39,637 nt of DNA. Origin: Coriobacteriia bacterium (lineage in GTDB: Bacteria > Actinomycetota > Coriobacteriia > Anaerosomatales > SLCP01). The DNA lies in NCBI GenBank assembly GCA_007125735.1, contig SLCP01000201.1, positions 1-39,637 of the forward strand. Reading direction: 5' to 3'. A program made the translations under genes and the position numbers. Below the pieces are notes generated by a model. The model made no database searches. It was not told where the DNA came from and saw only the letters and a list, made by a program, of their open reading frames with translations. Shown piece by piece: positions 733 to 39,636 of this stretch. Numbering within the stretch: position 1 is the stretch's first letter; each line of letters starts with the position of its first letter.

Positions 733-733
733 C

Positions 734-4296: not shown

Positions 4297-4857
4297 TCAC
4301 AACATCCCCAGTCGGAGCGCGTCGATGATCACGAGAGCGACCCACCACGCGAGAACACCGAAGAGCGTGGCCGAGGCTCCCCTCACGAGTGCGGTCGTGA
4401 GCAACCCCCCTCGGCAACCGGGGGAGCTCGCGTACCACGCGAAAGCCCAGGTGAAGACCGCGAGCAGCGGTCCTATCGCGGTGAGCGCGACCGTTGCGAG
4501 CAGCAGGTTGGGGTAGGCCGGATTCTCGAGTGCCGGTCCGGTGGCGTCGGGGCCGGCGAGCAGGTAGACCGAGGCCGCCACGAGCGCGGCCCATAGCGTC
4601 AGGTAGACGAGGTAGGGCCACCACGCGACCGGCTTCGCCGCGGGGGTCTCGCACGGAGCGGTCGCGGGAGCGGTCGCTGGCTCGGGCTCGGGCTCGGGCT
4701 CGGATGCAGTGTCAGGCGCTGCCGAGGCCTCGGGCGGCGGCTCGGGCGCTGCCAGGGCCTCGGGCGGCGGCTCGGATTCCTCGGCATCCGGCTCTGCGGC
4801 GTCGGACTCCGTTGGCTCGGGCTCCTCGTCGACGCGGATCGCTGTCTCCTCGCTCAT
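4297..4857 (-). CDS. Hypothetical membrane protein with a Pro/Glu/Ala-rich N-terminal low-complexity region and a hydrophobic C-terminal half
   Basis: The ATG at 4857 (MSEETAIRVDEEPEP...) overlaps the MFS stop as ATGA (4854-4857). The C-terminal half has about 4 hydrophobic segments (WWPYLVYLTLWAALVAASVYLL, LLLATVALTAIGPLLAVFTWAF, ATLFGVLAWWVALVII). The longer ORF reaching 4959 would lie inside the MFS gene. Confidence 0.6.
   Translation of the reverse strand: MSEETAIRVDEEPEPTESDAAEPDAEESEPPPEALAAPEPPPEASAAPDTASEPEPEPEPATAPATAPCETPAAKPVAWWPYLVYLTLWAALVAASVYLLAGPDATGPALENPAYPNLLLATVALTAIGPLLAVFTWAFAWYASSPGCRGGLLTTALVRGASATLFGVLAWWVALVIIDALRLGML
4679..4775 (-). repeat. In-frame tandem repeats inside the 4297-4857 CDS
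   Basis: GGCTCG occurs 4 times at 4679-4702 (encoding EPEPEPEP). Two 30-nt units at 4716-4745 and 4746-4775 differ at 2 positions (encoding PEPPPEA[L/S]AA). A 12-nt unit GGAGCGGTCGC occurs twice at 4655-4677. Confidence 0.9.
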
Positions 4858-6365: not shown

Positions 6366-6516
6366 ACACCCGTCCCATCACATGGCGCTCGGCCATCCTC
6401 GGCAGAATATGGTGCTTTAGTGCGGTTTACGATCGTCTGGCACCGCATCGCGTCCGTCCGGCATAGTATGTGCGAGTGTATGGCCGAGACTCTCAGCCAA
6501 CGACGCGAGGTGAAGC

Positions 6517-7827: not shown

Positions 7828-7854
7828 CGTACGCACGCACATCGCGCACGCACA

Positions 7855-7894
7855 GGGCCGCGCCGCTCGAGCGAGCAGCGCGGCCCTTGTTGTT
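7855..7894 (+). terminator. Rho-independent terminator candidate downstream of htrA
   Basis: Perfect 9-bp GC stem GGGCCGCGC (7855-7863) / GCGCGGCCC (7878-7886), followed by TTGTTGTT (7887-7894). It starts 28 nt after the htrA stop. Confidence 0.6.
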
Positions 7895-7914
7895 ACAGCG
7901 CGTGGGGCTTCAGG

Positions 7915-9276
7915 CTACGACCGGCGCGACTTCGTGAAGTAGTAGACGCCGACGCCTACTACCGCGATCAGCACCACGATAATGGTGACGAGCAGCAGCG
8001 GGTCGAGGCCCTCGGCGACCTCATCGACCGGCTCGGCGGGACGCGCCTCTGCGTCCGCATCCTCGGCACTCGTGAACACCGTGCCCGATGCTTGGGTCAT
8101 GGTGGTCGTGGGGATGTCGACGCCAGCGGCTTCAGCCATCTCCTCGGGAGCGGACCGGTAGTAGAGGGTCGCACTCAGCTCGAGGGCCCCGTCGGGCATC
8201 GTGACGTCCCACATCTCCTCGACCGATTCGCGCGGCGGGATGCGATCGTCGCTCTCTACGCCCTCGGCGAACCAGATCTCGGCAGGATAGTTGCCGTCGG
8301 CATCGTGGAACACGGTGTGGAACTCGCGGCGCCCGACCTCGAACGACTCGCCGTCCGGCCCGGTGGCCACGAGCTCGACCCACATGCGCCGCACGTCGGT
8401 GAGCCCGGTGGGCAGGTAGTGGCCAGCGCCGACGTTGGTGATGCGGACGCCGACAGAGGTCCCCTCACCGGGAGCCACGACATCCGGAGCAATAACCTCC
8501 ATCTCGGCCGCAGCCTGGAGGCGCTCCTCGGCCAGCTCCGCGTCGCCGAGGCCCGCGTTGCCGCCGGCGAACGTCATGATGTAGACGTGCTCGCGCTCAG
8601 GCGCGCCCGCCGCGACCCTGCCCGGGTTAGGCTTGGTGACGCCAGGACCGGGAGTCATGTGACAGTCCTGACACGTGATGCCCTCATCGGCATACGGGCT
8701 GTTCAGCCACTCGGTGTAGGTGCCCTCGAGCACGAGGTCGTTGACCGGATGGATCACCTGGTGGCACGAGCCGCAGAACTCTGCGCTTGTGTGCACCTCG
8801 GAGAACTCGGTTGCGTGCACGGGCGAGAATGAGTCCGTGAGACCGCCCCGCTTCGTGCCGTCCGGCGTCCACTCGAGCGACACGTTGCCCACGGGCTCCG
8901 TGTGCCCGGTGATCTGGTGACAGACGTCGCATGTCACGCCCTCAAGAGCTGCAGGAGAGAAATCTCCCGGGTCGCGCCCGAGCTCGCCCCACATCGCCGC
9001 TGCCGGAGAGTGACACGTCTCGCAGAAGTCGCCGATGGCCCCGTCGGTCTCCTCGTTGCCCTTGGCGAGCTTGTACTGGTAGAGCGGGTCGGTGATCGCC
9101 TGGGAGTGCATCGTCCGCGCCCACTGGTCGCGGAACTCGCCGTGACACCCACACCCCGTAGAAGCTTCGAACGCTCCCGGAGGTGCTGGTGGAAGTTCGA
9201 TCGCAAACGCCGAGGCTGCGAACACCAACGTCGCGGCCCAGACGCTCGCGAGTACGATCGACCTCTTGATTCCCAT
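7915..9276 (-). CDS. Multihaem c-type cytochrome with a signal peptide and a C-terminal TM anchor
   Basis: Four canonical CxxCH sites (CETCH, CDVCH, CGSCH, CQDCH) plus one CGCH site. N-terminal MGIKRSIVLASVWAATLVFAASAFA looks like a signal peptide. C-terminal LLLVTIIVVLIAVVGVGVYYF followed by KSRRS looks like a stop-transfer anchor. I prefer the start at 9276 (AAAGGGG SD) over the ORF-track start at 9318. Confidence 0.85.
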   Translation of the reverse strand: MGIKRSIVLASVWAATLVFAASAFAIELPPAPPGAFEASTGCGCHGEFRDQWARTMHSQAITDPLYQYKLAKGNEETDGAIGDFCETCHSPAAAMWGELGRDPGDFSPAALEGVTCDVCHQITGHTEPVGNVSLEWTPDGTKRGGLTDSFSPVHATEFSEVHTSAEFCGSCHQVIHPVNDLVLEGTYTEWLNSPYADEGITCQDCHMTPGPGVTKPNPGRVAAGAPEREHVYIMTFAGGNAGLGDAELAEERLQAAAEMEVIAPDVVAPGEGTSVGVRITNVGAGHYLPTGLTDVRRMWVELVATGPDGESFEVGRREFHTVFHDADGNYPAEIWFAEGVESDDRIPPRESVEEMWDVTMPDGALELSATLYYRSAPEEMAEAAGVDIPTTTMTQASGTVFTSAEDADAEARPAEPVDEVAEGLDPLLLVTIIVVLIAVVGVGVYYFTKSRRS

Positions 9277-9496
9277 GAAGGCCCCTTTCGTCGGCGCCTG
9301 TCCAGGAGCGCCGCACAACCGGCTATCGTGTTCGTACCCATCCGGCTCGACAACACTTCTCGCATCGCCTCCGGTCTACGAACCGCTTCGATTATCGCAT
9401 GTCGAAGCGCGGCCCGCTGTGGGATATACACCCCGTATACAGAATCCCCCGATGGCCCGCTCTACACGTGCGGGTCGCACAGAGAGGAGCCGGACG

Positions 9497-10003
9497 ATGG
9501 TCGAGATGTACCGCTGCAAGGGATGCGGGTACCTGCACGTCGGCCCCGCGCCCGAGATCTGCCCGGTGTGCGGTGCGCCCCAGAGCATGTTCGTGCTGCA
9601 GGAGGAACTGCCCGACCTCGAGGGCACGGAGACGCTCGAGAACTTGAAGGCGGCGTTCGCCGGCGAGTCGCAGGCGAATCGGATGTACACTCTGTTCCGG
9701 CGGATCGCCGAGCTCGAAGGCGCCCCCCAGTCGACGCTCGACGCGTTCGACCGGGCCGCCCGCGAAGAGACCGCACATGCACTCGGCCACCTCGCCTACA
9801 TGGGCGGGTTCGGCGAGACCAAGGCGAATCTCGAGACCGCAGCGTCCGGAGAGGACTACGAGTGCCAGGACATGTACCCGTCGTTCGCAGAGACTGCCAA
9901 ACGCGAGGGGTTCGACCACATCGCGTTCTACTTCCGCTCGGTAGGCAAGTTCGAGAAGGAGCACCGTGAGGAGTACCGGAAGGCCCTCGAAGACCTCGGG
10001 TGA
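9497..10003 (+). CDS. rbr: Reverse rubrerythrin (N-terminal rubredoxin-like 4-Cys domain, C-terminal di-iron ferritin-like domain)
   Basis: CKGCG...CPVCG lies at the N-terminus, followed by E/ExxH ligand motifs (FAGESQAN, REETAHA, GEDYE, FEKEHREE). AGAGGAG SD at 9483-9489 before the ATG at 9497. Confidence 0.9.
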   Translation: MVEMYRCKGCGYLHVGPAPEICPVCGAPQSMFVLQEELPDLEGTETLENLKAAFAGESQANRMYTLFRRIAELEGAPQSTLDAFDRAAREETAHALGHLAYMGGFGETKANLETAASGEDYECQDMYPSFAETAKREGFDHIAFYFRSVGKFEKEHREEYRKALEDLG

Positions 10004-11081
10004 GACGGGCACGCACGCGCCGCCCGACGCGCCACTCGCCGCCTTCGACCGTGCCGCTCTCGAACGCTGGCTCGCCGCCGAGGGCGTCCCGTCGTACCGC
10101 GGCGGGCAGATCCTGCGCTGGGCCTACCAGCGGGGCGCTTCCTCGTACGAGCAGATGACCGACCTGCCGATCGCCCTGAGGGAGACGCTCGCGTCGCGGA
10201 TGCCGCTGCACCTCCCCGTGCTTGAAGAACGTCTCGTCTCGGCTCTCGACGGCACCCGCCGCTACCTCTGGCGACTCGCGGACGGCGTGACCGTCGAGAG
10301 CGTGGGACTTCCCGCGAACGACCGGCTGACCGTCTGCTTCTCCACGCAGGCGGGCTGTGCGATGGGGTGTGCGTTCTGCGCGACCGGCGAAGGCGGGTTC
10401 GTGCGAGACCTCGGCCCCGGCGAGATGGCTCAGCAGGTGATGCTCGTGGGGGCGGACTTCGGGCAGCGCGTCACCAACGCCGTCGCGATGGGCCAGGGCG
10501 AGCCACTCGCCTGCTACGAAGCGACCCTCGGAGGCTTGCGGCTCATGAACGACGCCGACGCCCTCGGCATCGGCGCGCGCCACCTCACCGTTTCGACGTG
10601 CGGCATCATCGCTGGCATCGAGCGCCTCACCGACGAGCCCGAGCAGTTCACGCTCGCCGTCTCGCTCCATTCCGCGCGGCAGGCTACGCGCGATGCGCTC
10701 GTCCCGGCGATGCGCAACCAGCCACTCCCCCGCCTGCGCGATGCCCTCGTACGCTACGCCGATTCGACCGGACGGCGTCCCAGCCTCGAGTACGCGCTCA
10801 TCGCCGGCGTCAACGATGCGGCTGACGAACTCAGTGCCCTCGTCGAGTTCTGCCGAGGACTGCTCTGCCACGTGAACCTGATCCCCGTGAATCCCTCGGA
10901 GGGCACCGCGTTCGAAAGTCCGGCCTCCGGTCGCGCCGAGGAGTTCGTCGCCGCGCTCGAGCACTCAGGAACCGAGGCGTCGATACGGAAAGCGCGCGGC
11001 GTCGACATCGATGCTGCTTGCGGCCAGCTCACCCAGCGGCATGCCCTGCGAACCGAAAGCGACGTCGACCGCCTGGTGTAA
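9966..11081 (+). CDS. rlmN: 23S rRNA/tRNA (adenine-C2)-methyltransferase RlmN, radical SAM
   Basis: CAMGCAFCATG (CxxxCxxC) radical-SAM motif and a C-terminal region with GVDIDAACGQL, as in RlmN/Cfr. The only in-frame start before the conserved N-terminus is the GTG at 9966, which overlaps rbr by 38 nt. Confidence 0.88.
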   Translation: MRSTGRPSKTSGETGTHAPPDAPLAAFDRAALERWLAAEGVPSYRGGQILRWAYQRGASSYEQMTDLPIALRETLASRMPLHLPVLEERLVSALDGTRRYLWRLADGVTVESVGLPANDRLTVCFSTQAGCAMGCAFCATGEGGFVRDLGPGEMAQQVMLVGADFGQRVTNAVAMGQGEPLACYEATLGGLRLMNDADALGIGARHLTVSTCGIIAGIERLTDEPEQFTLAVSLHSARQATRDALVPAMRNQPLPRLRDALVRYADSTGRRPSLEYALIAGVNDAADELSALVEFCRGLLCHVNLIPVNPSEGTAFESPASGRAEEFVAALEHSGTEASIRKARGVDIDAACGQLTQRHALRTESDVDRLV

Positions 11082-14000
11082 GGCTGCACGCCGAGCCACT
11101 CGCCGGACAGCCGCCGCACACGTCGTCGCGCCAGGCGGTCAGCGGCTGGTACGGCTCGGCACCGATGCGTTCCCAGATACCAAGGATCGTGCGTTCTATG
11201 CTCGGTTGATGGGTGGCATCGAAGTCGAATTCGATCACCTCGGGTGCGCCGTGCGAGTCGACGACCTCCGGCCGAACGAAGCGAACCGCCACCGATGTCA
11301 CACCTTCGCGCAGCGCCGCAAGCGCGTAGCACTCCGCCTGCAACCGGTAGCGCGCGGCGAGCTCGTCTTTGGTTCCCCCGGTGCCGCTCTTGTAGTCGAC
11401 GATAAGTGCGGACGTGCTGTCGCGGGCGTACACGTCGATCGAGCCCACCAGCACCGGTCCGGCCTTCTGCCCGATACGAATGGCGAACGGGTGCTCGATG
11501 CCGCAACGAGGGTAATCGCTCACGAGCCCTGCGATATCGGAGGCTCTATAGCACACGACCGCCTGTTCGAGCCGCGCGCGCTCCTCGGCGGCAAGGCCGA
11601 ACGCGTCAGCGATCGACTCCACCCAGCCATCCGGCACGTCACGTGACGGGGCGCCCGCGCGCTGAAGCGCCACATGGAGCGCCGAGCCGAACCGCATGGC
11701 ATCGTGCGAAGCGGGCTGCCTGACGCTTCCCATCCGCCCGATCCGCTCCGCCCAATACCGAAGCGTGCAGCGTTCGTAGAGGGCAAGATCGCTGTAGGAA
11801 ACGCGCCCGGGAGGCGCTGGTGCCCTGACCGCCGCGCCACCGGGCGCGCCCGGCTCGGACGGTAGCGGTTGAGAGCATATCGTCTGCGCCGATACGGTCG
11901 TGGCCTCGCCCTCAGCCTGAGCCGTGCAACCGGCCACGTCCCTCCGCACGTCAACCCGCACCTGCACATCAGCGAGTTCGACTCGGGACTCGCTCTCTCT
12001 CGCCAACGCATCGGCGAGCACCGTCCCGTGCGCCTCGACGAGCCAGCCAAGCGGCGTATTCCGCTGCGTGTCGCAGAGCTTGTCGATCTTCTCCGAGCCG
12101 ACGAGAACGAGCACGTCCTCGGCCCGGGTGCACGCCACGTACAAGAGGCGCTTGGCCTCCTCGCTCTGCAGGTCGACTCCGTCACGGTCGACCTCCTTGA
12201 ACAGCTGCGTCTTCGTCGCAGCCCGAGACTGTGCGTCCGAGCGAGGGACCCAGGAGGCTGGCAAGCGGACCGCGAGCCGAGGATTCCCACACGCATGCGA
12301 GAGGCGCCAGAAGCCGCGCTGCTCGCTGACCGCGCACCGGCCGAGACCGGGGACTGCGACGACTGGGCACTCGAGCCCTTTGGCGGCATGCACGCTCATG
12401 ACCGTCACCGATCCGCCGCTGGCCCCTTCGCTCGTCGCCGGGCTCTCGTATCGACCGGCGGCTCGTTCAGCGTCGAGCGCGGAGAGAAACGCTGCCGCCC
12501 CTGCCCCGCCCGCCCGCTCGAACTGTGCGGCTTTGTCGACGAACTTCATCACGTTGGCCCTCGCAAGCCTACCCTTGACCCCCTGCTGAGCCAGAACGAC
12601 GTCGTATCCAACCTCTCGGACTGCCATCATCACGGCTACCGCGACCCCGTCGTCGCCCGCGCGGCGGGTCGCTCGCTCGATACACTCCGCCAGGTGAGCG
12701 GCCCGCCCGCCGAGGCATCCCCCGACCGCATGTTGCGCCTCGCCCAGCAGCTCGAACAGCGGGCGCGTGCGAGGCGAATCGCCGCTACCGGCGATGGTCC
12801 ACACATCGGCCCCACTGAGTCCCCCCATCTCGGAGAGGAGCCACTGAAGCAGCGCCCGGTCGTCGTAGGGGTTCGCGATCACAGCACAGAGCGCCCGCAA
12901 GCCCGCGAACACCGGCAGCGTGTAGAAGCGGTTTCCTCCCACGACCGTCGTAGGGAGGCCGCGCTGCTCGAGCTCTTCCGCAAAGGGAGTCGCATCCTGA
13001 TACTGACGAAGGAGCACGACCATGTCAGCCGGCTCGAAACCGTGTTCGCGAAGCTCGGCGAAGCGGTCCGCCACGATCGAGGCTTCAGCGCGCAACCAAT
13101 CGCACCGCTTAGCGCCATCAGACGTGTCGACGAACGCGATCTCGATGCGCGGCTCGCTTTGCGGGACACGAGCGGGATCCGGCTCCGCGCGCGCTGCACG
13201 CAGCTGATTGTCACGCTCACCGAAGAGCGCCTCGGAACCGAACGTCTTGTTGACGAACGCGATGATGTCCGCGTGCGAGCGGTAGTTGTCGTTGAGGTCC
13301 ACAAGGGCCGCGCCCTCGGCCCGCATGTGCTCCCGATGCTCCCGATAGACCACGACGTCAGCTCCACGAAACGAGTAAATCGATTGGCGTGCGTCACCCA
13401 CCGTTGCGAGGTCGGGGGCTCCCACGGACTCGATGAGTGCCAGCTGAAGGGCGTCGGTGTCCTGGAATTCGTCGACCATCACTGCCTCGAAGCGTGCACG
13501 ATACGCCTCCGCGACGTCCGGACGGCGCGCGAACAATCGAGCCGTGAGCACGATCAGATCATCGAAATCGAGCACGCTCCGATCTCGTTTCGCCTCCTCA
13601 TAGCAGACGAGATAGCGCGCAGCGAGTGCGGCCAGACCGCTCGCGAGCGGCCTCGTCACGGCCGATGCGCTCGCGTCGATCAGTTTGGATCTCGTGGCGC
13701 GTACGCGCTCGACCACCTCTGCAATCGCCTTCGCCGTTCGGTTCTGGGCCCCATAGTCGACGAGGGCTCGCCACAGATGCTCGCCGACATCGTGGCTTGC
13801 CAGGGACTCGTCTATCTCGCCGACGCGAAAGGCGAGGTCCTCGCATGCACGCGCGTGGGACGCAGCAGTCTTGCTCGTCTCGGCATGGGCCGTCAGCTCG
13901 TCTGCTGCGCCCCGGAAGAACGCCTCGGCCTTGAGGCGCACCTCACTGACGTCCACCACGTCCTCGAAGTCGATGTCCGCCGGTGAGAGCCCTCGCGAAC

Positions 14001-14520
14001 GCAGGGCGGCAACGAGGCTCACAGTCGCTGCGCGCACGTCGCCATACCCGTAGACCTCCAGTAGGCGGACGAGGTCCGCGTCGTTGCGGTCGAGCGAGAC
14101 TTCGGTTGCGGACTCGAACGCTGCGTTCGTCAGCTCCGCGAGCGTGACGTCGTCTGCGACGGCGAACGCCGGATCGAGGCCCGCTGCAAGCGCCTCTCTA
14201 CGCAGCACGCGGGAGCAGAACGTGTGTATGGTCGATATCCAGGCGCCGTCGACCTCCCGCGCAGCACGGTCGAGCCCGTTCACTCTCAGCACACTTCGCA
14301 CTCGCTCCGCAAGCTCAGCTGCGGCCTTCGTGGTGTACGTGATGGTGAGCAGGGCGCCGACTCGGTCTGCTGCCTCCTCCGGCTCGACCTCGGCGACGAA
14401 CGCCGCGAACCTCTCCGCGAGCGTCCGGGTCTTGCCCGAACCAGCCCCGGCTGTGATGAGCAGCCGCCCCGACCGGTGCTCTACGGCGCTCATCTGGCCC
14501 GTGTTCAGTTCGGCTCCCAC
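11029..14520 (-). CDS. addA: Helicase-nuclease subunit A (AddA/AdnB-like): UvrD/PcrA-type motor plus C-terminal RecB-family nuclease
   Basis: Q-motif LNTGQMSAVEH and Walker A AGAGSGKTRTL. Nuclease motifs GSIDVY, IVDYKSG and QAECYALA. I chose the GTG at 14520 (GGGGAGG 10 nt upstream, 12 nt after the addB stop). The alternative ATG at 14568 would overlap addB by 64 nt. Confidence 0.85.
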   Translation of the reverse strand: MGAELNTGQMSAVEHRSGRLLITAGAGSGKTRTLAERFAAFVAEVEPEEAADRVGALLTITYTTKAAAELAERVRSVLRVNGLDRAAREVDGAWISTIHTFCSRVLRREALAAGLDPAFAVADDVTLAELTNAAFESATEVSLDRNDADLVRLLEVYGYGDVRAATVSLVAALRSRGLSPADIDFEDVVDVSEVRLKAEAFFRGAADELTAHAETSKTAASHARACEDLAFRVGEIDESLASHDVGEHLWRALVDYGAQNRTAKAIAEVVERVRATRSKLIDASASAVTRPLASGLAALAARYLVCYEEAKRDRSVLDFDDLIVLTARLFARRPDVAEAYRARFEAVMVDEFQDTDALQLALIESVGAPDLATVGDARQSIYSFRGADVVVYREHREHMRAEGAALVDLNDNYRSHADIIAFVNKTFGSEALFGERDNQLRAARAEPDPARVPQSEPRIEIAFVDTSDGAKRCDWLRAEASIVADRFAELREHGFEPADMVVLLRQYQDATPFAEELEQRGLPTTVVGGNRFYTLPVFAGLRALCAVIANPYDDRALLQWLLSEMGGLSGADVWTIAGSGDSPRTRPLFELLGEAQHAVGGCLGGRAAHLAECIERATRRAGDDGVAVAVMMAVREVGYDVVLAQQGVKGRLARANVMKFVDKAAQFERAGGAGAAAFLSALDAERAAGRYESPATSEGASGGSVTVMSVHAAKGLECPVVAVPGLGRCAVSEQRGFWRLSHACGNPRLAVRLPASWVPRSDAQSRAATKTQLFKEVDRDGVDLQSEEAKRLLYVACTRAEDVLVLVGSEKIDKLCDTQRNTPLGWLVEAHGTVLADALARESESRVELADVQVRVDVRRDVAGCTAQAEGEATTVSAQTICSQPLPSEPGAPGGAAVRAPAPPGRVSYSDLALYERCTLRYWAERIGRMGSVRQPASHDAMRFGSALHVALQRAGAPSRDVPDGWVESIADAFGLAAEERARLEQAVVCYRASDIAGLVSDYPRCGIEHPFAIRIGQKAGPVLVGSIDVYARDSTSALIVDYKSGTGGTKDELAARYRLQAECYALAALREGVTSVAVRFVRPEVVDSHGAPEVIEFDFDATHQPSIERTILGIWERIGAEPYQPLTAWRDDVCGGCPASGSACSLTPGGRRRFRFAGHAAG

Positions 14521-17339
14521 GAAGGTGTCGCCTCCCCGCACACTCCCGTTATCGGGCAATAGCGGCATGCTCTTTCACCCCGCGGAGCCGGGTCGACCTG
14601 GCCCGCTCGCATGCCGTGAACTGCCACCGCAACCCGGTCCTGCGCATCGTCGATCAGTGCGGAGAACGCGGACGGGTCGACGGAGTCGGTGGAGACGCCC
14701 TGCGCACCGAGGTCTGCAGAGGCTGCGACCCAGGCCCCTCGGACCTGGAGCGAAGCAATCGACCGATAGACCGCGCCGACCGCCTGGCGACCCAGATTCG
14801 TGGCCGCAGCCGCAGCGTAGACGGGGAGCTGTACAAGTCCGTCACCTGCGAAACGCCTGTGGCCGGCTATCGTGGAGCCGGACTTGTAGTCCATCACGAC
14901 CAGCGAATCCGAGCTCGTGTCGATACGGTCGATCTTGCCCGCGAGACGCACGCCACCGAACACGAACGGTCGGCCTGACGCCGCTCCGAACGCGAACTCG
15001 TGCTCGGCCGGCTCGAATCCCGGCAGGAACGTTGCGTCGTCCCGCACGAGCGCCCTTGCCCGCTCGTGTACGGCGGCCACGGCGAAGCGCTCCTCGAGAT
15101 TCTGCGGGTGCATGCGCGCATGCGCGCTCAAGCCCTCCTCGACTTGTGCAAGAACCTCGAGGGCCTCCTCGATCGTATCCGAGGTCACCCGTGCCCTCCC
15201 CCGCTTGCGCCACTCTTCGTAGAAGCCGGCAAGGAGGGTGTGCGCGTGCGATCCAAGCTCTGATGCTCCCAGCTGAGAGTCGGCATCGCGCGCTTTCACG
15301 CCGTACACGATGAGCCAACTGCGCGGACACGCAAGGTACGTTTCGATCTCCGTGACCGAGAACTCCTCCCGCTCGCGCTGCGCGCGGATGAGGTCGGCCC
15401 GAAACCGCTGTTCTTGCGCTGTGTCGCAATCGCTTCCCGCCACACATGGCGCGCTCGATACCCGAGCTGACGCAGGGACGTACTCATGTGCGGACTCGCG
15501 AGTCGGCGGCCTCAGGTTAGCGGGCCCCCTCCGTGGTGGCACTCCGCTCTCCCGTTCCGTTTCGGTCCGATACAGATCGAGAATCTCATCGACGAATGGA
15601 GACGGAACGTCGCCTTCGCTGCCTGACAGCGTGGACGGGTGCACGAGCACGAGGCGCGCACGGGCTCGGGTCACGACCGAGTAGAAGATCAGGCGCTCGA
15701 GAAGAGCCTCGTCTGGCGAAGCAAGCGCCCCCAGACGCTCCGCCAGGAACCGCGAAACGGAATGCGTCTTGACCGGGGAGAACTCACTCCTGGACAGACC
15801 CCCGATCACGACCGCGTCGAAACGCCTTCCCTGCAAGCGCTTGGCCTCCGTGACGACCACCGACTCGGGCGACGGAGCCGGAACCGGCCCGACCTTCGCT
15901 CCTCGGATCGCTTCAGTGACCTCCGCCGCGGTGACATCCGGTCGCCTCAGTTCGAGAGCGGAGGTGACCGCCTCGCACACCACCGAATGCGCAGCCAGGT
16001 CGAGTAGGCCCTCCTCGGTCCCCGGTGGGTGTTCAGCCCGTGCGGACGCGATCAATATGTCTGCCAGTTCTTGCCATCTATCGGCAGTCTGGACGGTTAG
16101 GGGATCGCGCACCAGTGAACGCGCGATCGCGACCGCTCGCGCAGCGGCTCCACCTAGAGCGGACACTGCATCGAGGAGCGTCTGGCCCTCTACGCGATCG
16201 CGTCGCCAACGCATGTCTGCTGCGGCAACGCTTGTAGGCTCCGAACCCGAGTACGGGGTCGCAAGGAAGGCCAGTAGCCGGCTCCGGTTCGCAGCCGATG
16301 CGCTCACACAATCGAGTAGCGCCAGTAAGGCTGCGCCGTACCCGCTTCGCGAAAACGGGATGAGGATGTCGAGGTGGATGTCTACCCCGGCGTGCTCGAC
16401 AAGCCTGTGTAACGCGTGATGCCTGCGGGACGGATCTCTGAACGCGACCGCGATGCGATCGGGCTGCATGCCGGCGGCGATCCACGAGCTGACAACGTCC
16501 CCGATCAGCTCTGCCTCTGCGACCTCGTCAGCCGCGGCGGCGAACGACACCGCCCCGGTCGCCTCGATCGCAGCCCCCGGTCGATACAACTGGCGCTCTA
16601 TGCTGGCGAGCTCCACCTCGGTGCCTGTGCCCTCAGACGCGACGACGTGACGTGCGCCTCCCTCTGTCAGCCGAGTCACGAGCGGCTCGGTCGCTTCTGT
16701 TGCGGGATGGCCATGTTCCCAGGTCAGGGCCACCGTGACGCTGTTTCGCCGAGCCAGCCCCGCGAGAAGCCTCTCCTGGATGCCGGACAGGGTGGTGAAT
16801 CTGTTGGCGACGACCGGACCGTCCAGCGTCGGGGCACCTTCTGCGAGCATCGCCGCCGCCCCGAGCGGCTCGATCATGCCTTGCTCCTCACACACGTCGG
16901 CATAGCGTGCGAGAAGGGTGGCGATCTCACGGTCCCCTCCCCCGCAGCGCGCGACCGAGGCCGCCACCTCGGGCTCGAGTTGGCTTGCTACGTCGCACAG
17001 CACGTCCCTGAAGCCGGCCTCAGTCGCTACCGCCGCGTGCTCTGTCAGCGCGGTCCCGTCGATCGCGCGCGCCATCAATACGCGCCGCTCGAGGTGTGCC
17101 ACAAGCGCCCGACCATCCCCATGAAGAAGCCACAGCTCGGCGAGCCACCGGTCGAACGCTGACACGCGGACACCCGCGATATCCTTGTCAGCGAATTCGG
17201 TCTCGACACGAACAGCGTCCGGAAAGGTGGGGACGACGACCGTCGGGCACTCCCCCGCGTCAACGGCGCGGACCACCGTCTCGTACAAGAATCGCGTCTT
17301 ACCCGAGTTGGCTCCGCCTGTCACGACCGTGAGATGCAT
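14505..17339 (-). CDS. addB: Helicase-nuclease subunit B (AddB/AdnA-like) with a C-terminal RecB-family nuclease and a 4-Cys (Fe-S type) signature
   Basis: N-terminal GGANSGKT. C-terminal GKIDRID, VVMDYKSGS and QLPVYAAAA. Cys pattern YLACPRSW...CRYCPITGVC (C-Xn-C-X2-C-X5-C). AAGGAGAGGA SD before the ATG at 17339. Confidence 0.85.
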   Translation of the reverse strand: MHLTVVTGGANSGKTRFLYETVVRAVDAGECPTVVVPTFPDAVRVETEFADKDIAGVRVSAFDRWLAELWLLHGDGRALVAHLERRVLMARAIDGTALTEHAAVATEAGFRDVLCDVASQLEPEVAASVARCGGGDREIATLLARYADVCEEQGMIEPLGAAAMLAEGAPTLDGPVVANRFTTLSGIQERLLAGLARRNSVTVALTWEHGHPATEATEPLVTRLTEGGARHVVASEGTGTEVELASIERQLYRPGAAIEATGAVSFAAAADEVAEAELIGDVVSSWIAAGMQPDRIAVAFRDPSRRHHALHRLVEHAGVDIHLDILIPFSRSGYGAALLALLDCVSASAANRSRLLAFLATPYSGSEPTSVAAADMRWRRDRVEGQTLLDAVSALGGAAARAVAIARSLVRDPLTVQTADRWQELADILIASARAEHPPGTEEGLLDLAAHSVVCEAVTSALELRRPDVTAAEVTEAIRGAKVGPVPAPSPESVVVTEAKRLQGRRFDAVVIGGLSRSEFSPVKTHSVSRFLAERLGALASPDEALLERLIFYSVVTRARARLVLVHPSTLSGSEGDVPSPFVDEILDLYRTETERESGVPPRRGPANLRPPTRESAHEYVPASARVSSAPCVAGSDCDTAQEQRFRADLIRAQREREEFSVTEIETYLACPRSWLIVYGVKARDADSQLGASELGSHAHTLLAGFYEEWRKRGRARVTSDTIEEALEVLAQVEEGLSAHARMHPQNLEERFAVAAVHERARALVRDDATFLPGFEPAEHEFAFGAASGRPFVFGGVRLAGKIDRIDTSSDSLVVMDYKSGSTIAGHRRFAGDGLVQLPVYAAAAATNLGRQAVGAVYRSIASLQVRGAWVAASADLGAQGVSTDSVDPSAFSALIDDAQDRVAVAVHGMRAGQVDPAPRGERACRYCPITGVCGEATPSWEPN

Positions 17340-22783: not shown

Positions 22784-22918
22784 TCAGGCCGAGAGGACCT
22801 CGCGGCCCTTGCGGCGACGGTTGGCCAGTATGCGCTGTCCGGCACGGGTCGACATGCGCTTGCGGAACCCGTGTACCTTGCTGCGCTTGCGATTGTTGGG
22901 CTGGTACGTCCTCTTCAC
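22784..22918 (-). CDS. rpmH: 50S ribosomal protein L34
   Basis: (V/M)[43 protein letters not shown], 44 aa. GTG start at 22918 with a GGAGGA SD. Confidence 0.95.
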
Positions 22919-22960: not shown

Positions 22961-22990
22961 ATTATAGCGATGCAGTTTCATGAGTGTCAA
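22961..22990 (-). promoter_or_regulatory. rpmH promoter
   Basis: Minus strand: consensus -35 TTGACA (22990-22985), an 18-nt spacer and consensus -10 TATAAT (22966-22961). The short leader contains a GCCCCC/GGGGGC hairpin at 22935-22949. Confidence 0.7.
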
Positions 22991-23035: not shown

Positions 23036-23086
23036 TGTGGACAGTGTGGAAAACCCAGGCACCGCGACCGGGAGCCCTGTGGATAA
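23036..23086. promoter_or_regulatory. DnaA-box cluster I (between the divergent rpmH and plus-strand promoters)
   Basis: TGTGGACAG at 23036-23044 (2 mismatches) abuts TGTGGAAAA at 23045-23053 (1 mismatch). A perfect TGTGGATAA (complement of TTATCCACA) lies at 23078-23086. All three share one orientation. Confidence 0.7.
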
Positions 23087-23100
23087 CGTCGCCTGCGGCG

Positions 23101-23129
23101 TTGTTGGTCGCGGGCCCTCTTGCTAGAAT
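23101..23129 (+). promoter_or_regulatory. Candidate promoter reading toward the ATPase-wHTH ORF and dnaA
   Basis: -35 TTGTTG (23101-23106), a 17-nt spacer and an extended -10 TGCTAGAAT (23121-23129). Confidence 0.5.
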
Positions 23130-23398
23130 CGGCGGCGACCGCTGGTTGTCCTGGCGTTCGAGTCGTTCCTTGAAAACACCTGCTCATAGCGTCTGTTCAC
23201 TACCGGATGGGTTCAACGCTCAGATGCCTGGGACACAAAATGCGACGGAACCCGATCGGTCTGCACTCGACCCGCACGACTGTCCACATGCGGTGGAAGC
23301 AGACGATAGGCTTTTCAACAGACCGGAAAGGCCGGGAAGGGTCCGCCCCCTCGCTACCCTGCGTACTCGAGGGTTCGGCGAACCGAAAAGGCGCGATC

Positions 23399-23430
23399 CT
23401 TTCCACAGCTGTGGAAATGCCTGTGGATAA
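23399..23430. promoter_or_regulatory. DnaA-box cluster II
   Basis: CTTTCCACA at 23399-23407 (2 mismatches, forward orientation), TGTGGAAAT at 23410-23418 (2 mismatches) and a perfect TGTGGATAA at 23422-23430. A further 2-mismatch box CTGTCCACA lies at 23280-23288. Confidence 0.65.
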
Positions 23431-23635
23431 CGGAGAAAACCGCACTTGAGGTTTGCTGTTTGCTTTCGGTGGACCCAGATCGTGGACCATGGCTACTCTC
23501 TTCAGCAGGTGTTCTGGAAGACCCGCAGTCACGGCAGTCCTGTTGACAGCCGGCGTTGAACACTCGCGCCGTGGTAAGGGTGGGGGAGCGTTGAAGTACT
23601 TCTTTCGTGATGGGATTCCGGGCGGCCCCGCGCTC

Positions 23636-24451
23636 ATGGAGCGGGGGCCCAGCACCCAAGACTCTCGGGGGCAGACCTCGGCTACGCGGTTCGCCGCCCC
23701 CACCCCCTCTGCCTGCGTCGCCCGGATCGCGGTCTACGAAGCTGCCGGGGCAGCACCGCGCACGGAGGACGTCTCCTCGGCCGAAGCGCTCGAGTTCATC
23801 GAAAGCGTTTCTTCTCGCGTGCACGCACTTTCTCGAGAAGCCGGCGGCTCGATGCCGTACACCGTAATCCGTGAGGTGGTCGAGAACTTCGTCCACGCCG
23901 ACTTCACCGAGCCGGTCGTCTCCGTCCTGGATTCGGGGACGACCATCCGCTTCGCGGACCAGGGGCCGGGGGTTCCGGACAAAGAGAAGGCCGCCCTGCC
24001 CGGGTATACCACGGCCACCGCCGAGATGAAGAATCTCATCCGGGGCGTGGGCTCTGGCCTTCCTATCGTCAGGGACTTCCTCGAGCACTGCGGCGGCGCG
24101 CTCATCATCGAAGACAACCTCGGCCGGGGGACCGTGGTCACCATCACGTCGGCCGGCTCGACCGCCACGCCTTCCCCCTCTCCCGACCTCAACGTCCCTG
24201 CGGCGGTGCGTCAGCCCCTGGCGCCCTTGCCGCCGATCAGCACCCGGCAGAAGCAGGTTCTCTCGCTCGTGCTCGAACTCGGCGAAGTGGGCCCCACTAT
24301 CGTCTCCCGAGAGCTTTCGGTGGCCCTGTCCACGGCATACCGCGATCTCGCTCAGCTCGAGAGCATCGGGTTCATATCGGCCGATGAGGCCGGCAAGAGG
24401 GCTCTAACCGAGGACGGTCTTCGATTCCTCGACAGCATGTTCGGACAATAG
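23636..24451 (+). CDS. Soluble GHKL-type ATPase (HATPase_c-like, no HisKA or TM) fused to a C-terminal winged-helix DNA-binding domain
   Basis: N-box-like REVVENFVHA, G1 DQGPGVP and G2 GVGSGLPIV. After a Pro/Ser linker comes STRQKQVLSLVLELGEVGPTIVSRELSVALSTAYRDLAQLESIGFI (wHTH-like). Third-position G+C is 47/60 in the first 60 codons from 23636. The start is uncertain: ATG 23636, TTG 23591 (GGGGGAG upstream) or ATG 23489. The stop lies 21 nt before dnaA. Confidence 0.75.
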   Translation: MERGPSTQDSRGQTSATRFAAPTPSACVARIAVYEAAGAAPRTEDVSSAEALEFIESVSSRVHALSREAGGSMPYTVIREVVENFVHADFTEPVVSVLDSGTTIRFADQGPGVPDKEKAALPGYTTATAEMKNLIRGVGSGLPIVRDFLEHCGGALIIEDNLGRGTVVTITSAGSTATPSPSPDLNVPAAVRQPLAPLPPISTRQKQVLSLVLELGEVGPTIVSRELSVALSTAYRDLAQLESIGFISADEAGKRALTEDGLRFLDSMFGQ

Positions 24452-24472
24452 GCAGTGTTTGGAGGCAGGTAG

Positions 24473-25885: not shown

Positions 25886-26130
25886 CGATCACACCCACGA
25901 CCGTACGATATGTGGATAACGGTGTGTTTCGTAAGGGGATGGTTACTGGACTACATGAAGAAGGGGTTTCTTACGCTCTTCTCCTCGGGATAGTGTGGAC
26001 AGCGGGTACATTCTGTCAACATCTTGTACCCGGCCCCAATAGGGGTGCCAACCTCTACAGAGGTGTGTTTTCCACATGTTCCACAGCCCTTATTACTGCT
26101 GATACTCCGATATATAGAAAGGACGTAGTA
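25886..26130. other. oriC: Candidate oriC (dnaA-dnaN spacer): DnaA boxes, trio-like triplets and an AT-rich element
   Basis: Perfect TGTGGATAA at 25911-25919 and TGTGGACAG at 25994-26002. Abutting TTTTCCACA (26068-26076) and TGTTCCACA (26077-26085), then GCCC, then TTA TTA CTG CTG ATA CTC (26090-26107). The 26091-26130 stretch has 14/40 G+C by hand count, in a window that is about two-thirds G+C. Confidence 0.7.
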
Positions 26131-27237
26131 ATGAAGTTCTCTGTGTCCAAGGGTGAGTTGGCTGATGCTCTCAGTGTGGTAGGGAGGGCTCTATCATCGC
26201 GTTCGACGCTCCCTATTCTTTCAGGGATCCTCGTGTCAGCTGATGCTTCAGGGGAAGTCACCCTACAGGCTACGGATCTGGAGGTCTCCGTCAAAGAAAC
26301 GCTCTCTCTCGCTGGGGTCGAGAAAGAGGGAGCTGCCGTGTTACCGGGCAAACTCCTTGCAGATATCGTGCGGTCTCTCCCCGAAGCGGCGGTAACGATC
26401 GACGTCGACAAAGAGATGGCAGCGATCACATGCCTCCACTCCTCATTCGCCCTAAGGATCTTGCCGCACGAGGACTTCCCTAAGTTCCCGCAGGTAGAAA
26501 GCGACACGATGGTTTCGATACCCGCAGGTATCGTCAAAGAGACCATCAAACACGTGTCGAAGGCGGTTAGTAGAGACGAGACGAGACCGGTCCTCACTGG
26601 CATCCTTCTGACGATCGATGGACCTCAGCTGAAGATGGTGGCAACGGACTCGTACCGCCTCGCTGTCAAAGAGACAGAGATAGAAGGGGGTTCTTCTGAA
26701 GGACTGGAAGTGGTGATCCCGGCTAAGGTTCTCGATGAGGTAGCGCGCGTCAGTGCAGGAACAGAGGATATCTCGTTAGGGGTGGCAGAGAACCAAATAG
26801 TCTTCTCATTCGGCAGGACGGTGTTCGTCACGAGGCGGATCGATGGGTCGTTCCCAAACTATCGTCAGCTTATCCCGAAGGAATCGGAGACGAAGGTCAC
26901 TATGGCGCGCGAAGAACTCACGGCCGCCGTGAAGAGGGTCTCGATCCTTGCCCAACACAACACCCCTCTACGGATGAGCGTGAGAACAGAGGATCAGACA
27001 CTGAGTCTCTCGGCAACGAGTCACGAGGTCGGGGATGCTTCAGAGGACCTGATGGTAGCCGTGGAGGGGAGTGATGTGGAGATCGCCTTCAATCACATCT
27101 TCCTTCTCGACGGCCTTGCCGCTGCGGAAGGTGACGACATCGCGATAGATGTCGTGAGCCCCCTCAAGCCCGGAGTCCTGACCAGTCCGACCGACGACGG
27201 GTTTCTCTACTTATTGATGCCTGTGCGTTTGAGCTGA
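26131..27237 (+). CDS. dnaN: DNA polymerase III beta sliding clamp
   Basis: MKFSVSKGELADALSVVGRALSSRSTLPILSGILV... and a C-terminal LLMPVRLS. ATG at 26131 with AAAGGA upstream. The ORF-track start at 25912 would run through the DnaA boxes. Confidence 0.95.
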   Translation: MKFSVSKGELADALSVVGRALSSRSTLPILSGILVSADASGEVTLQATDLEVSVKETLSLAGVEKEGAAVLPGKLLADIVRSLPEAAVTIDVDKEMAAITCLHSSFALRILPHEDFPKFPQVESDTMVSIPAGIVKETIKHVSKAVSRDETRPVLTGILLTIDGPQLKMVATDSYRLAVKETEIEGGSSEGLEVVIPAKVLDEVARVSAGTEDISLGVAENQIVFSFGRTVFVTRRIDGSFPNYRQLIPKESETKVTMAREELTAAVKRVSILAQHNTPLRMSVRTEDQTLSLSATSHEVGDASEDLMVAVEGSDVEIAFNHIFLLDGLAAAEGDDIAIDVVSPLKPGVLTSPTDDGFLYLLMPVRLS

Positions 27238-27238
27238 G

Positions 27239-28366
27239 ATGAGCGAACGAGAGACGGTACGGATACGGACACTGGCTGTCCAAGCATTCAGGAATCACGA
27301 AGAGAGTACGGTCAGCCCAGGAAAGAGGAGTACGATCCTCGTCGGGCCCAACGCAGCAGGAAAGAGCAACCTGCTCGAGGCGGTCACACTCGCGGTCTCC
27401 GGATCATCGTTCCGCCCGTTCTCGTGGCCCGATGTAGTGATGGAGGGGCACGAACTCGCACGGGTGAGAGTCGACGCCGAGAGAGGAGCGCGAGCCGTGT
27501 CGGTGAAGCTACAGGTCGACTCGGCAGGGAAGAGGACATTCCAAGTCGACGGGAAACGCAAGAAGGGGCCCTCGGATGTCGTAGGGACCGTCCCCGCGGT
27601 CACGTTCGTTCCCGACGATCTCCAGCTCGCAAAAGGTCCAGCGGAAGCGCGAAGGAAGGCCGTCGACACACTGGGGTCTCAGCTCTCGAGCGCGTATGCA
27701 GCCTTACGCGCCGAGTACACACGGGTAGTCAGGCAGCGAACGGCCCTCCTCAGGCAAAGAGACACGGCAACGGAGCTCGGCGCCTGGGATGAGGCCCTTA
27801 CGACCATAGGAGCGGCGTTCTTCATCCACCGAGCCCGCCTCGCGACGAGGATAGAGCGCGTGATCGTACCCTTCTACGAGACGCTATCCGGCGGTGAAGA
27901 GGTGCGGCTTCGACTAGCGGCGTCGTGGGGAGGGGAGTCCGTGGCACCGCACGAATGGGCAGAGATGTCGCGAGATGAAGTGGAGCGGGTGATCACGGAA
28001 GCGATAGGGCGCAAGGCGCACGCGGAGAGGGCTCGAGGAATGACCCTCATCGGGCCCCACCGTGACGACATCGTGTTCACGGTCGAAGGGAGGACGGCGC
28101 GCGGGTTCGCCTCGCAGGGACAGCAACGGTCGCTCGCGCTGGCCTGGAAGATGGCAGAAGCCGAGGTCATAGGGGATGTTCGCGGACACACACCGGTCCT
28201 TCTTCTCGACGACGTAATGTCTGAGCTCGACGAGTCGAGGAGGGAGGCGCTTCAGAGGTTCGTGAACGGCGGCCCACAAGCGCTTATCACGACGACCAAC
28301 CTAGCGTACTTCGATGCGGGAGGCTTCGATGGAGCGGAGATCGTGGAGGTCCACGGTGTGCGCTGA
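27239..28366 (+). CDS. recF: DNA replication and repair protein RecF
   Basis: Walker A GPNAAGKSNLLEAV, signature SQGQQRSLALAWKMAE and Walker B VLLLDDVMSELD. It starts 1 nt after the dnaN stop. Confidence 0.95.
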   Translation: MSERETVRIRTLAVQAFRNHEESTVSPGKRSTILVGPNAAGKSNLLEAVTLAVSGSSFRPFSWPDVVMEGHELARVRVDAERGARAVSVKLQVDSAGKRTFQVDGKRKKGPSDVVGTVPAVTFVPDDLQLAKGPAEARRKAVDTLGSQLSSAYAALRAEYTRVVRQRTALLRQRDTATELGAWDEALTTIGAAFFIHRARLATRIERVIVPFYETLSGGEEVRLRLAASWGGESVAPHEWAEMSRDEVERVITEAIGRKAHAERARGMTLIGPHRDDIVFTVEGRTARGFASQGQQRSLALAWKMAEAEVIGDVRGHTPVLLLDDVMSELDESRREALQRFVNGGPQALITTTNLAYFDAGGFDGAEIVEVHGVR

Positions 28367-28934
28367 CCGAGCCGGAAAGCAGGTGCGCCTCGGCGACGCA
28401 CTGAAGGCACTCGTGTCGAGATCGGACGCCAACGGCACGGGGCTGGCCCAAGCGCGCATCGAATCGGTGTGGGAAGAGGTTGTCGGGCCCGAGGTCTCCC
28501 GGCACACCGCTCGCCTTGCCTTGAGAGAAGATGAGCTTACCGTTCACGTCGACTCACACACATGGGCGTCGGAGCTTTCGCTGATGGGAGAGCACCTGAG
28601 GGAGCGGGTTAATTCAGCTCTGGGTGAGAGCCTGGTTGGATCGGTCAGGTTTACTGTGTCCAAGGCTGTTGCAGAGCGAGAGAGCCGACGTCGCTCCGAA
28701 AGGGCCGTCAAGCGGGGATACGGGGGGGATCCGGTCACGCCGGAACCGCTCGGTCCCGAGGAGCGGGAGTGGGTGGAGCGCTCCGCAGACGCCATCCCGA
28801 GCGACTCTTTGCGCGAGGCGGCGATACGAGCGACAGTGCGCGATCTGGAGTGGAAAAAGGCCCGCGCGAAGCGCAAAGACTCGCAGGAGGGCTCTGGGGG
28901 GCCCACACGTACTAATTCGAGCGGTTTACCCTAG
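28356..28934 (+). CDS. DUF721-domain protein (DciA-like; the recF-gyrB spacer gene typical of Actinomycetota)
   Basis: IESVWEEVVGPEVSRHTARLALREDELTVHVDSHTWASELSLMGEHLRERVN fits the DUF721 pattern. The position between recF and gyrB matches Rv0004-type genes. GTG at 28356 (GGAGG 6 nt upstream) is chosen, with alternatives at 28314, 28329 and 28383. Confidence 0.78.
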   Translation: MCADRAGKQVRLGDALKALVSRSDANGTGLAQARIESVWEEVVGPEVSRHTARLALREDELTVHVDSHTWASELSLMGEHLRERVNSALGESLVGSVRFTVSKAVAERESRRRSERAVKRGYGGDPVTPEPLGPEEREWVERSADAIPSDSLREAAIRATVRDLEWKKARAKRKDSQEGSGGPTRTNSSGLP

Positions 28935-39559: not shown

Positions 39560-39636
39560 GGGCCCGTAGCTCAGTTGGTTAGAGCGCACGGCTGATAACC
39601 GTGAGGTCAGTGGTTCGAATCCACTCGGGCCCACCA
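39560..39636 (+). tRNA. tRNA-Ile (anticodon GAU), CCA encoded
   Basis: Cloverleaf folded by hand. Acceptor GGGCCCG/CGGGCCC, D stem GCTC/GAGC, anticodon stem CACGG/CCGTG with loop CT-GAT-AA, T stem AGTGG/CCACT with loop TTCGAAT, then discriminator A and CCA. Confidence 0.95.

Follow-up and report, generated by a model that had tools for sequence, protein, structure and literature searches.

A GHKL–winged-helix gene next to dnaA as a candidate regulator of chromosome replication in Coriobacteriia and other bacteria

Between the ribosomal protein gene rpmH and the replication initiator gene dnaA of a Coriobacteriia bacterium lies a gene whose predicted product joins a GHKL-type (Bergerat-fold) ATP-binding domain to a C-terminal winged helix. 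The window, that is the whole stretch of DNA analysed, is the 39,637-nt contig SLCP01000201.1 (assembly GCA_007125735.1), in which rpmH is separated from the GTG start of dnaA by 1555 bp (Table 1). An earlier note on this DNA, made from the letters alone, had put that spacing at about 1.55 kb and had placed in it a gene with host-like, high G+C content at third codon positions (GC3), starting at 23591 and ending 21 nt before the dnaA start with only a GGAGG Shine-Dalgarno sequence, and no terminator, in between; each of these points is upheld here. Consensus scanning of the gene-dnaA junction found neither a terminator-like nor a sigma-70-like site, and folding of the junction RNA gave no significant structure (z = 0.42). 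Across the related loci described below, the estimated distance between stop codon and dnaA start is mostly below 50 nt (median about 21 nt), with overlaps of 4-8 nt in three loci, and the few large values come from loci in which the N-terminus of DnaA is too diverged for its start to be placed. The short gap holding a Shine-Dalgarno sequence only, the lack of a terminator or of junction structure, and the short gaps and overlaps in relatives argue for a putative two-gene operon.

The one long plus-strand open reading frame (ORF) in the rpmH-dnaA gap runs from 23453 to 24451, its TAG stop codon being 24449-24451, and the choice of start codon within it bears on what is taken for protein and what for origin DNA. 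In the alignment, homologues open with MK[STY]F[FY], and the counterpart in the window is TTG-AAG-TAC-TTC-TTT from 23591. The GC3 of 23591-24451 is 0.81, inside the range of 0.65-0.91 for neighbouring genes, whereas the in-frame extension 23453-23590, with a GC3 of 0.565 and a G+C content at second positions of 0.674, has a non-coding character. Since homologue N-termini and codon statistics agree, the start is placed at TTG 23591, which gives a product of 286 aa. On the same two grounds, the starts at TTG 23453 (332 aa) and at ATG 23489 (320 aa, the gene-caller choice for the predicted protein P0001) were rejected, and ATG 23636 was rejected as it would remove the conserved N-terminus; it is this last codon that yields the 271 aa of the earlier note, whose product size (about 270 aa) was therefore wrong even though its start coordinate was right. 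Two antisense ORFs, 23354-24088 and 23734-24192 (both on the minus strand), are regarded as high-GC artefacts, the conserved protein lying in the plus frame. Automatic gene callers place the start too early, at ATG 23489 or among the DnaA boxes, as in P0001 (320 aa) and P0002 (417 aa), whose N-terminal extensions are translated origin DNA. Four further predicted proteins (P0226, P0265, P0225 and P0205) carry N-terminal extensions of 170-225 aa without a Pfam match, which may be the same start-call artefact.

The family is large. A protein search returned 2114 homologues at E <= 1e-3, a profile search of 50%-identity representatives returned 388 clusters at E <= 1e-30 and 531 clusters at E <= 1e-10, and family motifs were found in at least 563 genomes when one was scanned per species. 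Gene neighbourhoods were inspected in 85 loci, comprising the best 80 of these at least 563 species genomes and five contigs, by tblastn of the RpmH, RnpA, YidC, DnaA, DnaN and RecF proteins of the window. In all 85, the gene is followed directly by dnaA in the same orientation, and DnaA_N, Bac_DnaA and Bac_DnaA_C domains are found at the dnaA position of homologous loci. The best 80 genomes include uncultured Coriobacteriia, the cultured Slackia isoflavoniconvertens DSM 22006 (RNM37064.1), Gordonibacter and other Eggerthellaceae, as well as Thermoleophilia, Armatimonadota, metagenome-assembled genomes (MAGs) of Bacillota, "Bacillati ANGP1" and deep Actinomycetota (Ca. Hakubella, Geohabitans, Fervidifonticultor). 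The closest of them, SKMN01000028 from an uncultured Coriobacteriia, has a DnaA 90% identical to that of the window. In the inspected loci homologues thus adjoin dnaA in several phyla and do not sit at random positions, which answers the question of neighbourhood conservation that the earlier note had set as a test of its proposal.

Two departures from the usual arrangement are informative. No rpmH lies in the upstream 4 kb of Thermoleophilia loci, in which about six DnaA boxes are followed by the gene and then by dnaA. In one Eggerthellaceae MAG (JAFSHA010000077.1, positions 1-8738; locus L074) the gene and dnaA stand together, in inverted orientation, between dnaN and rpmH, giving the order recF<-dnaN<- / gene->dnaA->rpmH->rnpA->yidC->; this may reflect a true inversion at the origin or an error of MAG assembly. 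Because the pair is kept both without an upstream rpmH and when inverted as a block, the linkage is to dnaA and not to rpmH. Collections of 72,556 plasmids and 50,697 phages yielded no full-length copy, their only matches being generic haloarchaeal kinase domains, and among the PADLOC defence models only the winged helix was matched, by CasR/Csa3 regulators at 16-26 bits; an origin in a mobile element or a defence system was rejected on these two results, and membership of a defence system is not indicated.

Members of the family go by the names "hypothetical protein", "ATP-binding protein", "histidine kinase" (NCBI) and "anti-sigma regulatory factor". In the Pfam search that the earlier note had called for, the window protein matches HATPase_c (PF02518) over residues 90-186 with 38.8 bits (E = 1.4e-9; gathering cut-off 26.4) and no other Pfam family above threshold, and HATPase_c exceeds its threshold in 40 of 40 aligned relatives. 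Neither the window protein nor these relatives contain a HisKA, receiver or HATPase_c_2 domain in the Pfam scan, and the maximal 19-residue hydropathy of 0.94 indicates a soluble protein without a membrane segment; the absence of a phospho-acceptor histidine domain, of a transmembrane segment and of a receiver had been proposed from the letters alone and stands. An AlphaFold model built with 40 homologues has a mean predicted local distance difference test score (pLDDT) of 81.5, with values of 84-97 in the ATP-binding region. The modelled order is a hairpin (42-48/57-63), helix 66-83, the N-box helix 90-102, two strands, G1, the lid and G2, followed by helix 156-166, two strands (GTVVT), a disordered Pro-rich linker at about 188-215 and a compact C-terminal domain. 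The Bergerat domain comprises the beta hairpin ARIAVYE...APR, the N box R94-E95-V-V-E98-N99-F-V-H102-A, the G1 box D123-Q-G-P-G127, the lid, the G2 box G152-V-G-S-G-L-P158 and the strand G180-T-V-V-T184; the motifs REVVENFVHA, DQGPG and GVGSGLP, from which a GHKL protein was first suspected, are thus present and conserved. The MK.FF tip that precedes the domain is conserved in the Coriobacteriia-like group, the N-terminal motif occurring in 39 of the 85 loci, and the linker that follows it is much longer in some members, where it is visible as two matched stretches.

Conservation was measured in an alignment of 83 sequences from the fetched loci. Forty-two positions are at least 95% identical in these sequences, which come from several phyla, and among them are the ATP-site residues E95, E98, N99, H102, A103, D123, G125, P126, G127, K131, G152-P158 and G180 and the hairpin residues Y49 and P56. 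Together with the 2114 homologues and the GC3 of 0.81, these positions lead us to regard 23591-24451 as a genuine gene. Because every nucleotide-binding element is at least 95% conserved, the ATP site appears to be under strong selection and not to be a degenerate relic, and we infer that the protein binds ATP.

The evidence for a winged helix, likewise suspected from the start, comes mainly from structure. Modelled alone, the C-terminal domain reaches a pLDDT of 91.4 with the topology H-H-H-E-E-H, and Foldseek aligns it at about 1-2 Å with Hpr/ScoC, MarR, Rv0880, HpaR and IclR, with template modelling (TM) scores of 0.81-0.88, including one of 0.87 at 1.0 Å; scores on DNA-bound MarR-type regulators reach 0.88. 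In sequence profiles other family members pass the thresholds, with 34.5 bits for TrmB, 31.2 for HTH_24 and 31.3 for IclR, and for MarR likewise. Three arginines of this domain with a conservation of at least 95%, R219 (helix 1), R251 (recognition helix) and R270 (tip of the wing), occupy positions where contact with DNA would be expected. The recognition helix reads STAYRDL in the Coriobacteriia-like group and SSAHRAL (SSAHRALKKLEE) in Slackia. A beta-clamp-binding motif was also considered and rejected, as the C-terminal LDS[LM]F lacks a leading Gln-Leu and lies inside a confidently predicted helix. As modelled, then, the protein consists of a stand-alone GHKL ATP-binding domain, a flexible linker and a MarR-like winged helix, without the accessories of a histidine kinase.

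The DNA around the gene has the marks of a replication origin. The window contains eight matches to TTATCCACA with at most one mismatch, where 1.56 would be expected by chance and none of 100 shuffles reached eight, and five of the eight fall within 23045-23430 and 25911-26076. Under a relaxed definition of the DnaA box, seven of the 22 boxes in the 39.6 kb lie in 23036-23430 and four in 25911-26085, and the box clusters upstream of the gene and downstream of dnaA lie where the earlier note had put them. The boxes of the dnaA-dnaN spacer are followed by an AT-rich stretch at 26090-26125, probably the unwinding side of the origin, and the turning point of the cumulative GC skew, at about 24-26 kb, agrees with an origin in this region. 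The same layout recurs in relatives. In the 66 related loci with a tblastn match to rpmH, the rpmH-gene spacer has a median length of 700 nt and a mean of 5.1 DnaA boxes, with two or more boxes in 97% of spacers and a density of 7.7 boxes per kb as against 0.93 per kb across the whole loci. The dnaA-dnaN spacers of related loci carry a mean of 1.8 boxes together with AT-rich repeats of the TAGTAGTAATA type; the TAGTAGTAATA / AGTAATAAGG repeats recur in 10-26 of 76 such spacers, and that of the window carries CTTATTACTGCTGATACT on the plus strand at 26086-26125. These repeats resemble the DnaA-trio or unwinding elements of Bacillus-type origins, which have a split-origin layout. The layout described here is that of a split origin of the Bacillus type, with the gene inserted between the upstream box cluster and dnaA.

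Table 1. Coordinates of the origin-region gene, its domains, its neighbours and other features of the window
Feature	Position	Strand	Description and evidence
rpmH (ribosomal protein L34)	22784-22918	-	ORF and translation; GTG start with GGAGG upstream on the minus strand; divergent left neighbour
Consensus sigma-70-type promoter for rpmH	22961-22990	-	TTGACA-18-TATAAT, 12/12 matches in promoter scan; consensus match only
Upstream DnaA-box cluster 1	23036-23086	boxes on -	CTGTCCACA, TTTTCCACA, TTATCCACA; block conserved in the closest relative, L006
Candidate extended -10 element TGCTAGAAT facing the operon	23121-23129	+	Read from sequence; block conserved in L006; missed by consensus scan
Isolated DnaA-box variant CTGTCCACA	23280-23288	+	Relaxed box scan
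Upstream DnaA-box cluster 2	23399-23430		CTTTCCACA, ATTTCCACA, TTATCCACA; conserved in L006
GHKL–winged-helix protein gene	23591-24451	+	286 aa, TTG start, TAG stop; first cistron of putative operon with dnaA
Variable N-terminal segment, predicted disordered (aa 1-40)	23591-23710	+	pLDDT 43-63, alignment
Bergerat-fold ATP-binding domain (aa 41-187)	23711-24151	+	Pfam HATPase_c, AlphaFold model, Foldseek, conservation
Pro/Ser/Ala-rich linker of variable length (aa 188-215)	24152-24235	+	pLDDT <50 at residues 193-204; alignment
MarR/TrmB-like winged helix-turn-helix (aa 216-286)	24236-24448	+	Recognition helix LSTAYRDLAQLE, wing tip G268-K-R270; model, Foldseek, profiles in relatives
Junction with dnaA Shine-Dalgarno GGAGG (24461-24465)	24452-24472	+	21 nt; sequence, scan, folding
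dnaA	24473-25885	+	470 aa, GTG start; ORF; tblastn identity 33-90% across 85 loci
DnaA boxes of dnaA-dnaN spacer	25911-26085		Boxes at 25911, 25994, 26068, 26077
dnaN	26131-27237	+	ORF, tblastn
recF	27239-28366		After dnaN; ORF, domain scan
DciA gene	28314-28934		After recF; ORF, domain scan
tRNA gene	39560-39633	+	Sole Rfam match in window, 77 bits

Smaller elements in these spacers may bear on how the operon is controlled. The operon may have its promoter at the candidate extended -10 element TGCTAGAAT. Many loci (for example L012, L023, L024, L037, L019 and L009) have a DnaA-box-like TGTGGAAAG, or a GAAAG at the least, immediately next to the G-rich ribosome-binding site of the gene, 8-20 nt upstream of its start codon, and the form found in the window is the degenerate CGTGGTAAG at about 23570-23578; this position suggests that DnaA binds at the extreme 5' end of the operon, or else that a leader element has been conserved. 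Among the 18 single substitutions of the TCCACA core, TCAACA is an outlier in the related loci, with 48 occurrences upstream and 36 in the dnaA-dnaN spacers, about 10-fold and about 18-fold above the rest of the loci, as compared with 0.3-4.6-fold for the other 17. The TCAACA class forms a second class of box, TNTCAACA, with examples in the window at 23309-23318 (CTTTTCAACA) and 23541-23549 (TGTTGACAG). A structured RNA or riboswitch in the 672-nt leader was rejected, Rfam at gathering thresholds matching only the tRNA at 39560-39633, and the short inverted repeats of the rpmH-gene spacer are weak.

What is the protein related to? The top Foldseek match to the whole model is DIP2311 of Corynebacterium diphtheriae (PDB 3lmm), which aligns over about 265 columns and both domains (E = 3.4e-6) and is the only solved protein found with this order of ATPase-like and winged-helix domains. 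The two superpose with a TM score of only 0.41 and a root-mean-square deviation of about 15 Å, so that their domain arrangement differs; their identity is 14-17%, and DIP2311 is twice as long. We take DIP2311 to be a COG2865-type 'predicted transcriptional regulator' of unknown function, with AlbA_2, HATPase_c_4-like and helix-turn-helix (HTH) domains, and we know of no link between it and dnaA; neither HATPase_c_4 nor AlbA_2 is matched in the window protein (Pfam, E <= 1) or in 40 relatives, and membership of COG2865 is not indicated. The C-terminal 70 residues resemble the MarR/TrmB/IclR regulators as described above, but the window protein lacks the MarR dimerisation helices. Csa3/CasR models match the winged helix at E = 1e-6 to 1e-7, and Csa3 likewise has a nucleotide-binding domain N-terminal to its winged helix; the window protein, however, has no CARF domain, its ligand domain being a GHKL ATP-binding fold. 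In short, the protein fits only the generic definitions of a GHKL domain and of a winged helix.

Regulators of DnaA or oriC include Soj (ParA), YabA, SirA, DnaD, Hda, DiaA, SeqA and HobA and the response regulators CtrA, MtrA and Spo0A. Soj is an ATP-switch DNA binder that modulates DnaA, while Spo0A, CtrA and MtrA bind beside DnaA boxes, and the dnaA gene of E. coli shares its transcript with dnaN, which encodes a replication partner. None of the listed regulators was found to be related in sequence or fold, in keeping with the view of the earlier note that the gene is not a named initiation regulator, and to our knowledge none of them is a GHKL protein or the leading cistron of a dnaA transcript. 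The likeness to Soj, Spo0A, CtrA and MtrA, or to ligand-gated MarR and Csa3 proteins, is one of logic only and not of ancestry. The expectation that the protein would belong to no well-characterised family is likewise borne out: NCBIfam models score far below threshold, anti-sigma F included, and no paper, curated family or solved structure for the GHKL–winged-helix family, nor any description of a gene conserved as the leading cistron of dnaA, was found in a literature whose coverage leaves out most subscription journals, for which reason this absence is not proof.

We tentatively propose, with a confidence slightly short of even, that the protein binds DNA under the control of ATP and thereby regulates dnaA expression or initiation. 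The GHKL–winged-helix gene would be the promoter-proximal member of a two-gene unit with dnaA second, and the common transcript would begin in DnaA-bound DNA, within the box cluster that separates rpmH from the gene. The winged helix would bind DNA in the origin or dnaA-promoter region, probably as a dimer, and ATP binding or hydrolysis at the Bergerat domain would set the oligomeric state or the affinity for DNA. In this way the protein could tune dnaA transcription, or the assembly of DnaA on the upstream boxes, by nucleotide or energy state, while the shared mRNA and co-translation with DnaA would keep its amount proportional to that of the initiator. The genomic and structural parts of what the earlier note proposed are all upheld here, whereas co-transcription, DNA binding, ATP turnover and an effect on dnaA expression or initiation we infer from anatomy and synteny.

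Several observations weigh against this proposal. A promoter inside the gene may drive dnaA independently, and the synteny on which the argument leans was inspected only in the best-matching genomes and the five contigs defined above. The winged helix of the window protein itself falls below the Pfam thresholds (17.5 against 25.6 bits for TrmB, 17.1 against 22 for IclR), and the recognition helix is not invariant across the family, so that a single universal DNA target is not implied. An operator search, made by looking for recurring words in two phylogenetic groups by k-mer presence with DnaA boxes masked, gave only DnaA-box-like words of the TTNTCAACA type and A-rich words, none of them specific to the protein, and the TNTCAACA boxes may be weak, low-affinity binding sites for DnaA or may serve another protein that binds the origin. 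Moreover, the predicted TM score of the whole model is only 0.56, and the model is uninformative on communication between the two domains.

The name 'histidine kinase' that NCBI gives to members points to the most conventional alternative, an ordinary sensor histidine kinase of the two-component type, whose response regulator would be encoded at another locus. The catalytic and ATP-binding (CA) domain of such kinases (PF02518; HK853, CpxA, WalK, KinB) has the same Bergerat fold with N, G1, G2 and G3 boxes, HATPase_c exceeds its Pfam threshold in the window protein, and histidine-kinase CA domains provide both the best PDB sequence matches (3d36, E = 3e-5 by profile, with nothing closer) and the bulk of the Foldseek matches. 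Yet a HisKA/DHp or other phospho-acceptor domain is missing from 40 of 40 members, conservation of histidines is limited to H102 of the N box and does not extend to H78 or H166, the window protein has neither sensor nor membrane segment, and there is no response-regulator gene nearby, the neighbours being rpmH/rnpA and dnaA/dnaN/recF/DciA. NCBIfam histidine-kinase models reach 11-19 bits against cut-offs of 300-1200, and fusion to a winged helix and a fixed place beside dnaA set the family further apart. The window offers an internal contrast in a conventional sensor histidine kinase at 1249-3327 (plus strand), with HisKA at 50 bits and HATPase_c at 97 bits. Since the DHp domain and the phospho-acceptor histidine are lacking, a classical histidine kinase is effectively refuted, and we consider this explanation highly improbable. 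Another parallel is offered by SpoIIAB/RsbW (HATPase_c_2, TIGR01925), in whose manner the GHKL domain would be directed at a protein, binding DnaA, another initiation protein or a sigma factor and sequestering it or phosphorylating it on Ser/Thr (or Tyr) in an ATP-dependent way, with the winged helix serving to park the protein at the origin or as an interaction surface. The minimal GHKL domain, with its strand(s) and helix before the E-x-x-x-N helix and without DHp or a conserved histidine, recalls the minimal anti-sigma kinases; weak matches to anti-sigma F exist (TIGR01925, E = 0.001; PDB 1th8/1til, E = 0.006-0.01, residues 76-172), the JGI name for some members is 'anti-sigma regulatory factor (Ser/Thr protein kinase)', Y49 of the N-terminal hairpin is among the most conserved residues, and tight or overlapping junctions such as those between the gene and dnaA are typical of complex-forming proteins. 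Against it stand scores far under the family cut-offs (19 against 135 bits for TIGR01925, 12.2 against 27.4 for HATPase_c_2), the lack of any STAS/anti-anti-sigma or sigma-factor gene nearby in the window and in loci L001-L005, the origin context and the extra winged helix, in which the conserved basic residues of recognition helix and wing argue for real contact with DNA. On balance a protein-directed switch of this kind seems to us unlikely, if worth keeping in view.

It might also be that the protein is a general transcription factor, or a DNA binder of the nucleoid or segregation type, with targets elsewhere, and stands before dnaA only for the sake of its expression, through origin-proximal dosage and growth-rate-coupled, DnaA-autoregulated transcription. 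Winged helices of the MarR type belong to generic regulators, the Foldseek list includes the centromere-binding AspA and the FtsK gamma domain, FtsK_gamma is matched in five of 40 members, and the operator search gave nothing specific in the origin region. However, gene order decays fast between phyla unless it is functionally constrained, and here all 85 loci retain the pair, even where DnaA identity is as low as 33%, despite changes of upstream neighbour and a block inversion, with junctions that are short down to the point of overlap. We therefore regard this explanation as distinctly unlikely.

Returning to an ATP-controlled regulator of dnaA expression or initiation, its interest lies in where it occurs. 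Present understanding of how DnaA is controlled comes mainly from E. coli, Bacillus and Caulobacter, and we know of no DnaA regulator for most Actinomycetota or Armatimonadota; it is for this reason that the invariance of the gene-dnaA pair is surprising. A place as leading cistron that is kept in every inspected locus, with DnaA identity falling to 33%, is among the strongest genomic signals of functional partnership, and it makes the gene a strong candidate for a new regulator of chromosome replication. Its parts are familiar, and what is new is the tightly conserved association of a proposed one-component, nucleotide-gated DNA binder with the replication initiator. If ATP status were indeed coupled to dnaA expression or origin firing, this would add initiation control of a new type, one that uses a GHKL switch in place of AAA+ or ParA chemistry. 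A bolder version, which we think possible though rather doubtful, is that the family represents an unrecognised ancient class of initiation regulator in Coriobacteriia, Thermoleophilia, deep Actinomycetota, Armatimonadota and some Bacillota, in which an ATP-sensing GHKL switch co-translated with DnaA would bind the origin (possibly the TNTCAACA variants among the DnaA boxes) or DnaA itself, and would license or restrain initiation by energy state. The presence of the gene in cultured Eggerthellaceae of the human gut, such as S. isoflavoniconvertens DSM 22006, makes the hypothesis directly testable. The analysis also corrects the family-wide mis-annotation as 'histidine kinase' and the mis-called start codons.

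Elsewhere in the window, a pair of large helicase-nuclease genes of the AddAB/AdnAB type lies about 6-12 kb from the origin, at 11029-14568 and 14505-17339 (both on the minus strand), with UvrD-helicase and PD-(D/E)XK domains in one and PD-(D/E)XK alone in the other. Three further minus-strand ORFs of 449-500 aa (6493-7842, 7915-9318 and 9462-10964) are without a Pfam match at E <= 1e-5; given the GC content of the region and the plus-strand ORFs that overlap them, they may be spurious or called on the wrong strand. The sigma-70 consensus before rpmH is perfect (12/12) although the region is about 65% GC.

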